Made by a program: the position numbers and the translations under genes
Shown: positions 9,966 through 28,386 of the stretch, piece after piece
Position numbering within the stretch: the first letter of the stretch is position 1
How the letters are laid out: every line of letters begins with the position of its first letter
From: a virus
Taxonomy: Duplodnaviria; Heunggongvirae; Uroviricota; Caudoviricetes
Length of the DNA: 28,386 nt
Direction: 5' to 3' (one strand)
IMG/VR virus record: IMGVR_UViG_3300031994_000017
Coordinates: 122,023 to 150,408 of that record
Notes under the pieces: generated by a model
The model's database searches: none
Told to the model about the DNA's origin: nothing
Seen by the model: only the letters and a program-made list of their open reading frames with translations

Positions 9966-10021
9966 GGGTTAATCACTCCTTTTTTGAGTAGGGCGGGGAT
10001 TGCTCCCCGCCCCTTGGGGAA

Positions 10022-10393
10022 TTACGCAAGGGAGTAATAAACCTTGCGCTTATCGGTGGTCTTGCTCACCTTGCCCTCGGCAACCAGTCCCCGCATAAGG
10101 TAGGAAACCTTGGGCGCAGACAGACCAAGAGAAACCACAGTCGGCAGATTCTTTGCGATTTCATCAGACGAATACAGGGTACCGGGCTCCATCTCGGAAA
10201 GGATAGCGGAGCGGATTTCGGCGTCCTGCGCCTTCTGTTCTACCTGCTTCTTGGTGGGCTTGCGCTCGGCAGTGTTGCGCTTGATGGTCTGGTCACGAAG
10301 CTGAATCAGCTTCTCCTGAACCTCATCGGAGGTCACAGCAATGGCGGCATTCAGAGCGTCAACGTAGGTCATCTTCTTGGTGGAATTAGTCAT
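10022..10393 (-). CDS. probable winged-helix DNA-binding protein, paralog of 8435-8809
   Basis: 123 aa; first 18 residues 15/18 identical to paralog (MTNSTKKMTYVDALNAAI); tandem promoters at 10467-10495 and 10558-10586. Confidence 0.8.
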   Translation of the reverse strand: MTNSTKKMTYVDALNAAIAVTSDEVQEKLIQLRDQTIKRNTAERKPTKKQVEQKAQDAEIRSAILSEMEPGTLYSSDEIAKNLPTVVSLGLSAPKVSYLMRGLVAEGKVSKTTDKRKVYYSLA

Positions 10394-12744: not shown

Positions 12745-12969
12745 TTATCCTCCCATCATTTCCTTATACTTATTTTTTCTTTTCTTTTTAAAGGTTTTGG
12801 CATCAAATTCTTTGGCTTCATAAAAGTCAAAATAAAGTCTTTCTCCGAATTCAAATTCCTGATATTTAAAATATGAATGATGCTTCATTGCTTCTTCAAG
12901 AGAGGGATAAATATAGCTAACATCAGTGTCTTCCCCGAAGCCGTCAACCCATTCCAAAATAGCAATCAT
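12745..12969 (-). CDS. hypothetical protein (74 aa)
   Basis: True start MIAILEW (AAAGGAG RBS, promoter 13005-13033); the longer track ORF runs through the promoter. Confidence 0.75.
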   Translation of the reverse strand: MIAILEWVDGFGEDTDVSYIYPSLEEAMKHHSYFKYQEFEFGERLYFDFYEAKEFDAKTFKKKRKNKYKEMMGG

Positions 12970-13060
12970 TTTTGTTATTCTCCTTTCGTTTCTTTCTGGG
13001 TGTATTATAGCACACTTTTCCACCTTTGTCAAGCATTTTTTTAATTTTGGTGAGGATTTT

Positions 13061-13276
13061 TTAATCCTCACCAAAACCATAAACGATATTGCCAGAACTA
13101 GTGAACAGAAGAACGCCAAAGGGGCAAGGGTCGTTCTCATCAACAGGCTCTTCCCACCAGTAAATTGCTTTACGGCGCGCTTTTGCGGCATCAATGAAGT
13201 GCTCAAACTCTTTACGCGCAACCTCACGTCCATCGGTGAGGTCATAGACGGCAACAATAAAATTAACAGTAGGCAT
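13061..13276 (-). CDS. hypothetical protein
   Basis: 71 aa, AAAGGA RBS, own promoter, TAA in hairpin. Confidence 0.75.
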   Translation of the reverse strand: MPTVNFIVAVYDLTDGREVARKEFEHFIDAAKARRKAIYWWEEPVDENDPCPFGVLLFTSSGNIVYGFGED

Positions 13277-13335
13277 GATATTGATTCCTTTCTTTGTTTT
13301 TTGTGATTACATTATATCACATTTTTTCGTTCTTG

Positions 13336-13485
13336 TCAAGGGTTTTCTATTTCTTTTTTTCTATGTTTTTCATGACGCTTAAAAGAACCTTTACCCTTTT
13401 TTGCGCGAACAGTAGAACCTCTGCGCCTAAAGGCTAGGTAATCTTGAAGCTCTTGTCCGCTTTTCTTTAGGTATTCTTTATTCAT
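13336..13485 (-). CDS. arfA: ArfA-like alternative ribosome-rescue peptide (49 aa)
   Basis: MNKEYLKKSGQELQDYLAFRRRGSTVRAKKGKGSFKRHEKHRKKEIENP*; FRxR...KKGKGS(F/Y)xRxxKH matches the ArfA core (E. coli [21 protein letters not shown]); GAGAGGT RBS; promoter TTGACT-17-TATAAT 13516-13544; not in ORF track. Confidence 0.75.
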   Translation of the reverse strand: MNKEYLKKSGQELQDYLAFRRRGSTVRAKKGKGSFKRHEKHRKKEIENP

Positions 13486-13524
13486 TTCTTATTACCTCTC
13501 TCATTTGGTAGCTTTATTATAGCA

Positions 13525-13758
13525 TCATTCATACAAAAAGTCAAGATATTTTTCAGCGTAGGTATAAATTTTTGCCGCGATTTTTCTTGGTAAAATATAA
13601 TAGCAGAAGTGGCCATTCTCTTTAGAAAAAGTGCCACGCCAGCCGAAAAACCAATTCCACCAAAAGGGTTTAGCTTCGCAATACAGCTCAGCCAATTTTA
13701 CAAGCGGCATTTCATAATCATCATAACGGATTTTTGTGTAGTTAAAAAGAGTATACAT
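13525..13758 (-). CDS. hypothetical protein (77 aa)
   Basis: Start moved to MYTLFNY (AAAGGA RBS), promoter TTGACA-17-TATACT; 3' end overlaps the promoter of the ArfA-like gene. Confidence 0.7.
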   Translation of the reverse strand: MYTLFNYTKIRYDDYEMPLVKLAELYCEAKPFWWNWFFGWRGTFSKENGHFCYYILPRKIAAKIYTYAEKYLDFLYE

Positions 13759-13946
13759 GATATTAGTTCCTTTCTTTTTGTGATTATAGTATAGCATAGA
13801 TTAAGGTCTTTGTCAAGTGTTTTTAGGAAAAAATTTCAAAGAATTTTTATTCAATTTTTTGTATAAAAATTTACTAATAGTCTATTGGTGTAGAATTTCC
13901 TCGCGCCTGGTCCGTAGGCGCGAGGGTCAAAGGAAAAGGTGGTTTA

Positions 13947-13988
13947 AAAAATGGGGCAGCTTGGTAGAAAGGTAGACCAAACTGCCCC
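13947..13988 (-). terminator. intrinsic terminator of the tRNA-Lys unit
   Basis: GGGGCAGTTTGGT-loop-ACCAAGCTGCCCC followed by ATTTTT on the minus strand. Confidence 0.65.
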
Positions 13989-14024
13989 GGGGCCAAAAGG
14001 AAGGAGAACAACAAAGGAAACGTG

Positions 14025-14100
14025 TGGTGCGTCCGGGGAGATTCGAACTCCCGACCCACAGATTAAAAGTCTGTTGCTCTACCATCTGAGCTACGGGCGC
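14025..14100 (-). tRNA. trnK: tRNA-Lys (anticodon TTT)
   Basis: GCGCCCG TA GCTC AGATGGTA GAGC A ACAGA CTTTTAA TCTGT GGGTC GGGAG TTCGAAT CTCCC CGGACGC A CCA; full cloverleaf, encoded CCA, one C4:A69 mismatch; own promoter. Confidence 0.95.
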
Positions 14101-14203
14101 ATTTCTCTTACCTTCTATATATATTATAGCAAATTTTTTTCAAAAAGTCAAGTAGAAATTTCAAAAAATGAAACGAATTTTCTGGAAGATTTGGAGTGAA
14201 AAA

Positions 14204-25920: not shown

Positions 25921-27090
25921 ATGTCAGCTTATTATTGTGAGAAATGTCAACGCACTTTAGATGAAAAAGAATTTTATAATTCAAATAATTTAGAAAAATA
26001 TCCAACTGGCAAATTAAATCAATGTAAAAAATGTATTACAATGCATGTTGATAATTGGGACCCATCTACTTATACTTGGATACTCTAGGAATGTGACGTT
26101 CCCTATGTTCCCGATGAATGGAATAAAGTATTAGCAAAATATACTTCAAGCGGAACAAAAATTACAAGTATGACTATTCTCGGTCGTTATCTTTCTAAAA
26201 TGAAACTAAAGCAATTTAAAGATAAACGCTGGTAGGATACAGAAATTTTGTAGAAACTGGCGGAAAATAAAATGACCGAAGCAATGCGGAAACAGGGGTT
26301 TTCCGAAGGTGAAATTGAAGAAGCAATTCAAAAAGGAAAAATTCCTACTCCCGAAAGGCCAGAAGATGAACAAAAGGATATTCCAATCGCAGAAGAGCCT
26401 GTTCCGCTGCCTGACCCATTAGATGACATTGACCTTACCGATGAAGAGCGCACTATGTTGCGGTTAAAATGGGGTAAAATGTATCGTCCCGATGAATGGG
26501 TATGGTTAGAAAAAATGTATCAAGATATGATGGCTTCTTATGATATTTAGACTGCTGGTCATATTGATACATTAAAACTTTTATGTAAAACTTCTCTTAA
26601 AGCTAATTAGCTTATAGATATAGGCGATGTTGAAGGCTTTCAAAAGATGCAAAAAGCATATGACTCATTAATGAAGTCAGGTAAATTCACCGCGGCTCAA
26701 AACAAAGACGCAAAAGGTGAATTCGTAGACTCTGTTTCTGAAATTGTAGCATTATGCGAAAAAGAGGGCTTCATACCTCGTTATTATGTCAGTGAACCGC
26801 AAGACCAAGTAGATTATACTATTAAAGATATGCAACGATATACTAGAACTCTTATTACAGAAGAGATGCATCTTGGCGAGTTAATTGAAGAAGCAATTAA
26901 AAATAATGCCAAAGAAGATAATAAAGAAAATGAAGATGAAGATCTTGATTTAAACGATGATGATAGCGATATTGAGCAAATTGAGCGTGGTTTGCGTGAT
27001 GAAGATTATGAAAACTATGGAGACTTCATAGAAGAAGAACAAAACAAAGATAAAGAGTATCTTGATCTTGTCCTAGGAGGTCAAAAATAA
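25921..27090 (+). CDS. Zn-finger protein preceding TerL, candidate small terminase subunit (code 15, 389 aa)
   Basis: GAGGAGG RBS, ATG 25921; MSAYYCEKC...QCKKC; joins track ORFs 26272-26550 and 26647-27090 through 5 in-frame TAG; TAATG-coupled to TerL. Confidence 0.8.
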
Positions 27091-28386
27091 TGGCATTACA
27101 AGAATTACTAGGAACCATAGATGTTCAAAATAAAATTGGTATTTCTGAAGAACGGTTGCGGGCCGTTCTTCCTTCATTGCGGCAATACGTTGCTTTTTGG
27201 CGTGAATACCCTGATTTAATGGTAGATTTTTTTGTTAAGGGTACTCGCACCGAACATAAAGAGGGTGAATTTCGTTTTTATTTTTATCAACGAGTTTTTT
27301 TGCGTGTAGTTATGCGCTATTAGTATGTGTATGCGGTCTTTCCGCGCGCATATTCAAAGTCATTTTTAACAGTTATGTCAATGATGTGTCGTTGTATTTT
27401 ATATCCACGATGCAAATTGTTTGTAACAAGTGGAGGCAAAGAACAAGCCGCGAGTATTCTTTCTCAAAAGGTTCAAGAAATATGTACTCTTATTCCCGCA
27501 TTTTCAAGAGAAATAGATTGGCGGCGTGGAGTCACTCAAGAGCAAAAAGACCATTGTCGCTATGTTTTTAAAAATGGTAGTGAACTTGATAACTTGGCGG
27601 CCCGAGAAAGTTCTAGAGGACAGCGTCGTCATGGCGGCACCATTGAGGAATGTGTTGGTGTAGATGATAAAATTTTGCGCGAAGTTATTATTCCTACAAT
27701 GGCGGTTAATAGACGATGTATGGATGGTTCTATTCAAAGAAATGAACCTTTAAATAAAAGTTAGATTTTTATTACTACTGCGGGTTATAAAAATACTTTC
27801 CCTTATGACCGTTTAATTGGTTTCTTGGTTCGTATGATTATGCAGCCAGAACGTTGTATGGTTCTTGGCGGCACTTGGCGACTTCCTGTAAAAGTAGGCC
27901 TACAAGATAAAACATTTATTCAAGACCAAAAGGATGAAGGAACTTATAATGAGGCTTCTTTTGAACGCGAATATGAATCACGTTGGACAGGAGATGTTGA
28001 AAGTGCTTTCTTTAATTCGGATGCTTTTGAACGTAATAGAGTTTTAAATCAACCAGAATATGAACACTCAGGACGCACTAGTACTAAATAGTATTATGTT
28101 CTTTCTGTAGACGTGGGTCGTAAGGGAGACAATAGCGTAATTTGTGTTTTTAAAGTGACACCGCAATTACAAGGTGTGGCATTAAAACAATTAGTTAATA
28201 TATATAGTTTTACCGCCGAACATTTTGAAGACCAAGCTATTTTTATTAAAAAATTATATTATAAATATAAAGCTAGAAGAATTGTTATTGATGGTAATGG
28301 CCTCGGTATTGGCCTGTTGGACTACATGGTAAAACCTCAAGTTAATGTAGAAACTAATGAAACTTTCCCAGATTTTGGTGTTTATG
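27090..28386 (+). CDS. terL: terminase large subunit (code 15, 3' partial)
   Basis: One frame through TAGs at 27321, 27762, 28089: P-loop FPRAYSKS, Walker B GTIEE, motif III QIFITTAG, RNase H-like LSVDVGR and IVIDGNGLG. Confidence 0.92.

Follow-up and report, generated by a model that had tools for sequence, protein, structure and literature searches.

What does a gene for a 49-residue ArfA-like peptide do in a large gut phage that reads TAG as glutamine, and does it belong to the machinery of that code switch? The gene lies in a 28,386-nucleotide stretch of DNA (positions 122,023 to 150,408 of IMG/VR record IMGVR_UViG_3300031994_000017; hereafter the window), the final part of a complete 150,408-bp virus genome with terminal repeats of 127 bp. 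The full translation, MNKEYLKKSGQELQDYLAFRRRGSTVRAKKGKGSFKRHEKHRKKEIENP, displays the core F19-R-R-R ... K29-KGKGSF-K-R-HE-K40-H41 and no hydrophobic tail. An initial annotation, made from the letters alone, had described a 49-codon open reading frame (ORF) with its own consensus promoter, an ArfA core and a TGA end without hydrophobic extension, all of which are indeed seen in the sequence, the promoter being near-consensus, and had tied the peptide to the reassignment of TAG. The sequence comparisons presented here support a genuine, conserved, ArfA-related small gene product, which may recruit the release factor RF2.

Homology to bacterial ArfA

Against the Pfam ArfA family (PF03889), the peptide scores 25.5 bits (E 8.9e-6), a value equal to the gathering cut-off, with profile positions 23-43 of 44 aligned, which places the ArfA affiliation given by the initial annotation right on the threshold; the six-frame genome search against the same profile gives 24.3 bits, slightly below the 25.5 cut-off. 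In the PDB, searched with a profile at E<=1, seven sequences match, six of them ArfA chains, with ArfA accounting for all of the best four (E ~0.003), CtsR as the weakest match (E 0.25) and no BrfA chain. In hhalign, the profile of 28 phage homologues set against that of 11 gammaproteobacterial ArfAs yields a probability of 97.4%, an E value of 1.5e-11 and 62% identity, the homology block comprising residues 22-47 only (26 columns), and the ArfAs of Vibrio, Pseudoalteromonas and Colwellia display 67-70% identity over residues 19-45. Among the PHROGs, the peptide matches phrog_37108 (48 positions), a family without known function.

The tail A28-KKGKGSFKRHEKH-41 matches the ArfA signature KKGKGS[YF]xR..KH. 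Across the 28 phage homologues, residues K29-S34 and R37 are invariant, and common to Vibrio-type ArfA, F19 is nearly invariant, and the phage peptide retains, as K40-H41, the KH motif through which ArfA and BrfA alike touch the mRNA channel (PMC8012679). Ahead of the tail, G23-V26 stands in the hhalign block at the position of E. coli ArfA Q27-E30, the register relative to E. coli F25 differing by 2 residues between Pfam and hhalign. In E. coli ArfA, residues Q27-E30, together with F25, form the β-strand that docks on domain II/IV of RF2. When both sequences are aligned on the KKGKGS motif, P49 of the phage peptide falls at about residue 53 of E. coli ArfA, which we take to be the end of its active truncated product; the phage peptide would then end about where active truncated E. 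coli ArfA does.

Residues 1-21 show no alignment with ArfA, either by Pfam, where profile positions 1-22 are unmatched, or by hhalign. Here an N-terminal helix conserved among the phages replaces the RF2-activating region of ArfA (E. coli residues 1-25, site of the A18T substitution). From the family alignment, AlphaFold2 models residues 10-22 as a helix that leads into an extended tail, with block-mean predicted local distance difference test (pLDDT) values of 83-89 for residues 1-20.

Conservation and breadth of the family

Homologues of 44-57 residues are carried by 49 IMG/VR loci, with the consensus ELQxYLxF[RK][RK]RGxxVxAKKGKGS[YF]xRKxKH; this set was confirmed against the first sequence of the alignment, and a search with the mixed alignment recovers the same 49. 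The median ratio of nonsynonymous to synonymous substitution rates (dN/dS) amounts to 0.20 over 262 informative pairs, all below 1, as calculated on a 34-codon ungapped core, and the gene is under purifying selection. A profile search of 1.84 billion representative proteins discloses 326 clusters (50% identity) at E<=1e-3, including 134 at E<=1e-10; among the matches listed, nearly all are small (37-122 residues, with one of 180) and matched over almost the whole profile. Two homologues bear the name 'stalled ribosome alternative rescue factor ArfA' in the JGI automatic annotation. The family is not a host gene and is rare in the likely host class Clostridia, where 2 of 399 sampled genomes contain a match, one of the two being a metagenome-assembled genome (MAG) with phage contigs.

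In a sister subfamily the N-terminal module (FKKEGEELQQYLHFRKRGSVVES) persists, but KGKGS and KH have been lost and the basic tail is degenerate (ESKKKYNRQKFKRG). Its loci are L275-L279, L281, L149 and L150 (records G459-G461, G476, G472, G460 and G050), and a shorter basic stretch, KKKYNRQKFKRG, stands in place of KKGKGS..KH. Because this subfamily keeps the N-module without KGKGS/KH, the N-terminal helix is at least as conserved as the ArfA-like tail, and the phage-specific helix may be the functionally constrained part.

A tblastn search with the 49-residue peptide against 50,697 GenBank phages returns no match, a blank that is uninformative because the low-complexity filter hides the lysine-rich tail; with the Enterococcus phage peptide as query against the same phages, only residues 1-28 matched, the tail being masked. 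Individual phage records were scanned with the family profile in place of BLAST.

A functional, E. coli-like C-terminal extension in the homologues of 61-68 residues was rejected, these being code-15 gene calls that read through a TAG stop. Code-15 gene callers lengthen TAG-ended ArfA-like ORFs by up to ~23 residues; the ORF at L282 (3001-3207, in an ENA scaffold of 58.8 kb; P0007) is confirmed to end in TAG, and P0002 and P0005 look TAG-ended too, judging by their Q-led extensions. Read back into nucleotides, the extension peptide (…CLT…CVII…) seems to correspond to the -35 and extended -10 boxes of the next gene. Two of the 49 IMG/VR loci (L044 and L049) contain TAG-ended ArfA-like ORFs; such homologues would lengthen after a code switch, whereas the window copy, ending in TGA, would not.

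Association with tRNA arrays

A tRNA gene lies within 1 kb of the ArfA-like gene at 36 of the 49 loci and within 3 kb at 40, always on the same strand. The ORF is typically placed between two tRNAs of the phage array; in the window, it is accompanied by one lone tRNA-Lys(UUU). At 11 of the 49 loci, a suppressor tRNA(CTA) occurs within 3 kb in the same array. In the cultured Enterococcus phage H1 (region 125239-126769 of OP534061.1, L135), the homologue H1_147 (gp147, annotated as hypothetical) lies 2.2 kb from an array of 19 tRNAs. Three genes separate it from H1_150, which encodes a peptidyl-tRNA hydrolase of the PTH2 type (Pfam E 1.4e-15). H1_147 and H1_150 possibly constitute a rescue-plus-hydrolase module in a cultured phage. 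Folate genes are adjacent. According to Iyer et al., phage tRNAs, RNA repair and PTH2 are ribosome-rescue counter-measures that reverse host attacks on translation (PMC7824862); no mention of ArfA was found in the passages of that paper that were searched.

Independence from TAG recoding

The phage is TAG-recoded, as the initial annotation held, because (i) one of its 32 tRNA genes, as predicted by ARAGORN, carries the anticodon CTA, (ii) the coverage by ORFs of at least 150 residues (stop-to-stop) rises from 0.42 under the standard code to 0.75 with TAG as sense, and (iii) TerL (27090-28385) and its upstream late neighbour hold three and five in-frame TAGs, respectively. The ArfA-like ORF itself contains zero in-frame TAGs and sits in a TAG-free array of small promoter-bearing minus-strand genes. 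Throughout the phage genome, no gene for RF1, RF2, ArfB or PTH2 was found, no match to PF00472, the GGQ catalytic domain, or to PF03462 was obtained, the 49-residue peptide itself being without GGQ, and ARAGORN predicts no transfer-messenger RNA (tmRNA) gene. Its closest cultured relatives have Enterococcus, Geobacillus, Alicyclobacillus and Bacillus as hosts, and related contigs are binned with Clostridia MAGs, the host assignment being indirect, by way of cultured relatives and MAG binning.

The proposal that the gene could be part of the code-switch machinery is not supported, since the family occurs in standard-code phages and is absent from several recoded relatives. The comparison of code-15 with standard-code phages, suggested as a check by the initial annotation, finds standard-code carriers among the Enterococcus phages and in the IMG/VR records G002 and G045. 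By TerL (~50% identity), the nearest cultured relatives are the Enterococcus phages H1, VRE9_4 and EF1, which carry the family at full length (E ~4e-16, 56.5 bits); VRE9_1-3 and EF5 carry it as well, bringing the cultured Enterococcus carriers to seven. H1 is verified as standard-code, with a long-ORF coverage of 0.73 under the standard code versus 0.75 with TAG as sense, and 19 tRNAs with no suppressor, and the six others are annotated under the standard code. Two complete IMG/VR phages with the gene, G002 (169 kb) and G045 (154 kb), likewise use the standard code, with coverages of 0.75 and 0.74, and G477 contains the gene and no TAG in either marker gene. Among recoded phages, the code-15 relative Phass-1 displays no family match at E<=0.1, and the gene was not found in the recoded relatives G456, G457, G467 and G470, ascertained by TerL.

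Two distributional observations point the other way. TerL contains 1-11 in-frame TAGs in 37 of the 37 carrier records in which it was found, which might be read as support, but the carriers are related phages (TerL 33-75% identical). Among TerL-ascertained records at least 75% complete, the gene is carried by 6 of 11 recoded versus 0 of 5 standard-code records (one-sided Fisher p ~0.06), a contrast that is at most a hint because the records fall into few related sub-clades. The genetic code of most IMG/VR records was judged from two marker genes only. In the present genome, a distance of 30 kb separates the ArfA-like gene from the suppressor tRNA. Of 50 early ORFs crudely delimited in the window, about 9 terminate at TAG; on read-through, another stop follows within ~30-150 nt, so that TAG read-through need not produce non-stop complexes. 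A link of the gene to recoding is therefore not supported, and the gene is independent of recoding.

Several records deserve mention for their coding state or assembly. G002 (IMGVR_UViG_3300045988_106809; L181-L189), with its ArfA-like gene in L003 at 10001-10153, contains a tRNA(CTA) in an array 2.5 kb from that gene and ORFs that are intact under the standard code, their coverage of 0.75 hardly shifting with TAG as sense, possibly a pre-recoding state in which a suppressor tRNA exists without genome-wide recoding. G460 (IMGVR_UViG_3300032167_000002, 402 kb) comprises two copies of the late marker and two ArfA-like genes, and may represent two related phage genomes joined in assembly. G464 (IMGVR_UViG_3300045988_152426) has one marker copy with 13 in-frame TAGs beside another free of them, and may be a chimeric contig or be in a mixed coding state. 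Among the relatives, TerL is split into 2-5 pieces in G007, G008, G015, G018, G032, G044, G046, G047 and EF1, the gap in EF1 (L124) holding an annotated HNH homing endonuclease ('phage intron'). Finally, ARAGORN reports tRNA-like genes with 4- or 2-base anticodon loops (ttgt, tgtt, gttt, tt) at conserved places of the tRNA arrays, both in the present genome (G000:C1:112292-112367) and in relatives (L014, L027, L029, L030, L041 and others); these may be unusual tRNAs, RNAs that resemble tRNA or artefacts of the prediction.

Comparison with known rescue systems

Like ArfA (YhdL; PF03889; PDB codes 5MDV, 5U4I, 5H5U and 5MGP), the phage peptide is small and basic, displays the tail KKGKGS[YF]xRxxKH and a segment aligned to the RF2-docking β-strand, and has a length that fits the active truncated form. 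It differs in the presence of an acidic amphipathic helix, ELQDYLAF, where ArfA has IKDNAIEALLHDPLF, and in being encoded by Firmicutes phages, outside the known beta-/gammaproteobacterial range of ArfA. Unlike E. coli arfA, the phage gene ends in an ordinary stop codon and has no hydrophobic extension, RNase III hairpin or internal terminator, and it is not tmRNA-controlled since these non-stop-mRNA features are missing. A non-stop-mRNA design was accordingly rejected, there being no terminator-like site and a sole predicted hairpin in the 5' half of the ORF. That hairpin (13405-13460, minus strand, codons ~9-27; z = -2.6 against shuffles for the whole 216-nt fragment) is placed differently from the RNase III hairpin of E. 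coli arfA, which occupies a 3' position. The initial annotation had envisaged a constitutively active form made early: the TGA stop and the lack of both an extension and a non-stop design agree with a constitutive form, and early, unconditional synthesis may reasonably be inferred from the TAG-free promoter array.

Phage-borne members of PF03889 have been annotated before, in Citromicrobium phage RXM (g10; PMC8953757) and in pelagiphage HTVC027P (gp30, expressed early and late; PMC12753301), both standard-code. These proteins resemble the present peptide by annotation only and have been read as phage translation support; the two phages differ from the present one in their hosts, which are Alphaproteobacteria, and gp30 adds a transcript profile. 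The closest counterparts are H1 gp147 and its homologues in EF1 (39452-39598), EF5 and VRE9_1-4, all named 'hypothetical protein', which belong to the same family, comprise 48 residues with the same helix-plus-KKGKGSYKRKPKH arrangement, end in an ordinary stop codon and lie near a tRNA array. They differ in the standard code of their genomes, a more diverged N-module (DEVGDYLQKVSRG) and a nearby PTH2, absent here. BrfA (YqkK) of Bacillus subtilis offers a Firmicute parallel, an RF2-dependent rescue peptide whose KH motif lies in the mRNA channel (PMC8012679, PMC6881298), yet the PDB search at E<=1 detected no sequence similarity to it, and BrfA is made from non-stop mRNA and confined to Bacillus. 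An 'ArfA' in an Enterococcus anti-restriction preprint (PMC10680825) was set aside as probably an unrelated gene name; the term is absent from the latest version.

Proposed mechanism and alternatives

We favour, at slightly better than even confidence, a constitutive rescue factor: its tail would sense the vacant mRNA channel, and its mid-segment together with the helix would draw in a release factor of the host (RF2, to judge by homology), keeping ribosomes available during infection. The gene is real and conserved, and the basic C-terminal tail of its 49-residue 'mini-ArfA' product, AKKGKGSFKRHEKH, is homologous to the mRNA-channel part of bacterial ArfA. Where a ribosome has run to the 3' end of a broken or stop-less mRNA and stalled, this tail would thread into its vacant mRNA entry channel, while the short segment ahead of the tail, which aligns with the RF2-docking strand of ArfA and is preceded by the phage-specific amphipathic helix ELQDYLAFRRR, would contact the factor. 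A non-stop ribosome marked in this manner would receive host RF2, the nascent peptide being freed and the ribosome recycled. Unlike cellular arfA, the gene would be expressed as soon as infection begins and irrespective of tmRNA; this tmRNA independence is suggested by the TGA stop, a strong host-type promoter, a Shine-Dalgarno site and the absence of an internal terminator or 3' cleavage hairpin. The gene would thus belong to a translation-maintenance set of large Firmicutes phages, comprising the tRNA array, tRNA-repair enzymes and, in the Enterococcus phages, PTH2, directed probably against host mRNA decay and RNA-cleaving defences, and not specific to TAG recoding.

Several points weigh against this interpretation. 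The N-terminal 21 residues are unalignable with ArfA, and in E. coli ArfA it is the N-terminal region, for example A18, that activates RF2, ArfA(A18T) binding and recruiting RF2 without activation (PMC8012679); because the phage counterpart of this region is non-homologous, RF2 activation does not follow from homology. The Pfam score, exactly at threshold, rests on ~20 lysine-rich residues. Both ArfA and BrfA act with RF2 in a species-specific manner, and the former is known only from beta-/gammaproteobacteria (PMC8012679), whereas these phages infect Firmicutes. The sister subfamily without KGKGS/KH adds that the conserved function may possibly reside in the N-terminal helix, not the tail.

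A more specific form of the rescue model is possible, though more probably wrong than right. Here, large Firmicutes phages of either code would deliver a constitutive ArfA-type factor that combines the ArfA tail with a new N-terminal helix fitted to Gram-positive RF2, linked to the tRNA array and probably co-transcribed with it, so as to release ribosomes blocked by RNA-cleaving defences of the host (anticodon nucleases and mRNA interferases) or by mRNA decay that the phage induces. If true, an ArfA-type system would for the first time be seen to act in Firmicutes, and the factor would represent a novel kind of counter-defence in phages, with an extra role in recoded phages, the clearing of read-through casualties.

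The non-homologous N-terminus also admits a blocking ribosome binder, whose tail would compete in the empty mRNA channel with tmRNA-SmpB or with host mRNA loading and whose helix would activate no release factor, shutting off trans-translation tagging or host translation. The tails of ArfA, SmpB and ArfB share one common binding site, and ArfA(A18T) provides a precedent for RF2 recruitment without activation (PMC8012679). This alternative is nevertheless unlikely, given that stalled ribosomes are costly for the phage too, that the segment at the RF2-docking strand (E. coli Q27-E30, window G23-V26) is retained inside the homologous block, and that the gene travels with translation-support genes (tRNAs and PTH2), not with shut-off genes. 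An N-terminal helix that is conserved and phage-specific might instead recruit another partner for rescue, namely RF1, either release factor, as ArfT does in using RF1 or RF2 (PMC8012679), or a hydrolase such as the phage PTH2, a near neighbour in the Enterococcus phages; PTH2 and release-factor genes were, however, not found in the present genome, and the sole homologous precedent, ArfA, is RF2-specific, which makes such a partner improbable.

An accessory role in the TAG-to-Gln code switch, in which an RF2-based factor would clear, without RF1, the ribosomes that have read through TAG to 3' ends, is distinctly unlikely. It accounts for the TAG-bearing TerLs of carrier records, the suppressor tRNAs in neighbouring arrays, the excess of recoded carriers (6/11 against 0/5) and the TAG-ended early ORFs of the window, and it agrees with the action of rescue systems including ArfA at UAG in RF1-deleted E. 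coli (PMC6207430). It conflicts with the seven cultured Enterococcus phages, G002 and G045 as standard-code carriers, with G477 and its TAG-free markers, with the recoded non-carriers Phass-1, G456, G457, G467 and G470, and with the standard-code setting of the published phage ArfA cases (PMC8953757, PMC12753301); moreover, the Fisher value of ~0.06 derives from few related sub-clades, the suppressor tRNA lies 30 kb away, and read-through meets a stop within ~30-150 nt. Very improbable, lastly, is a small basic nucleic-acid-binding peptide unrelated to rescue, its ArfA match a product of lysine-rich convergence: the match is indeed short, lysine-rich and exactly at threshold, and the tail is masked by the BLAST low-complexity filter, but the motif AKKGKGS[FY]xR..KH is common to gammaproteobacterial ArfA at 62-70% identity (hhalign E 1.5e-11), and ArfA makes up 6 of the 7 PDB matches at E<=1, CtsR being the weakest at E 0.25.

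Local organization of the locus

The coordinates of the ArfA-like ORF and of the surrounding elements are compiled in Table 1. Within 12900-14200, the minus strand holds five sigma-70 sites in which at least 11 of 12 positions agree with the consensus and an extended -10 TG is present, approximately one per small gene, and promoter-like sites in the region number 8 versus 3.1 expected. The promoter of the ArfA-like gene is real but not distinctive, because sites of this quality fill the same 1.3 kb at about one per small early gene. No terminator-like site occurs in 12900-14200, and hence none between the ArfA-like ORF and the next gene; the whole early array on this strand seems to consist of single-gene promoter units without terminators.

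Table 1. Features of the ArfA-like gene, its product and its surroundings (nucleotide positions in the window; residue positions in the 49-residue peptide)
Feature	Position	Strand	Remark
ArfA-like ORF, 49 codons	13336..13485	minus	ATG 13485-13483, TGA stop 13338-13336
Predicted helix GQELQDYLAFRRR	residues 10-22		
Candidate RF2-docking strand	residues 23-26		aligned position
Basic tail AKKGKGSFKRHEKHRKK	residues 28-44		
Shine-Dalgarno site GAGAGGU	13494..13500	minus	8-9 nt 5' of ATG; read from sequence
Sigma-70-type promoter TTGACT-17 nt-TATAAT, extended -10 TG	13516..13544	minus	11/12 positions match
Perfect consensus promoter of next small gene (13061-13276)	13311..13339	minus	-35 box overlaps ArfA-like stop codon
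Lone tRNA-Lys(UUU) gene	14025..14100	minus (same strand)	~540 nt upstream of ArfA-like ORF

Significance

ArfA-type rescue is regarded as confined to some Proteobacteria, where it serves as a tightly repressed back-up of tmRNA. The annotation of phage genes as ArfA has precedents in the literature and in the JGI pipeline; what is new comprises (i) a Firmicutes-phage subfamily with its own N-module, (ii) its embedding in tRNA arrays, (iii) its presence in cultured Enterococcus phages, and (iv) its independence from recoding. Within this phage family of 326 clusters, the ribosome-sensing tail is kept, the tmRNA-dependent control is dropped and another N-module is acquired, in a Firmicutes setting. 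For the study of recoding the result is a negative one, this gene not being one to count as code-switch machinery. The members in cultured Enterococcus phages (H1, EF1, EF5 and VRE9_1-4) make the function directly testable. If the peptides recruit a release factor, they would provide a compact natural variant for studying stop-codon-independent release-factor activation and an example of a virus that keeps the ribosome pool free during infection; the gene looks like part of the general upkeep of protein synthesis by the phage, and not part of the code switch.

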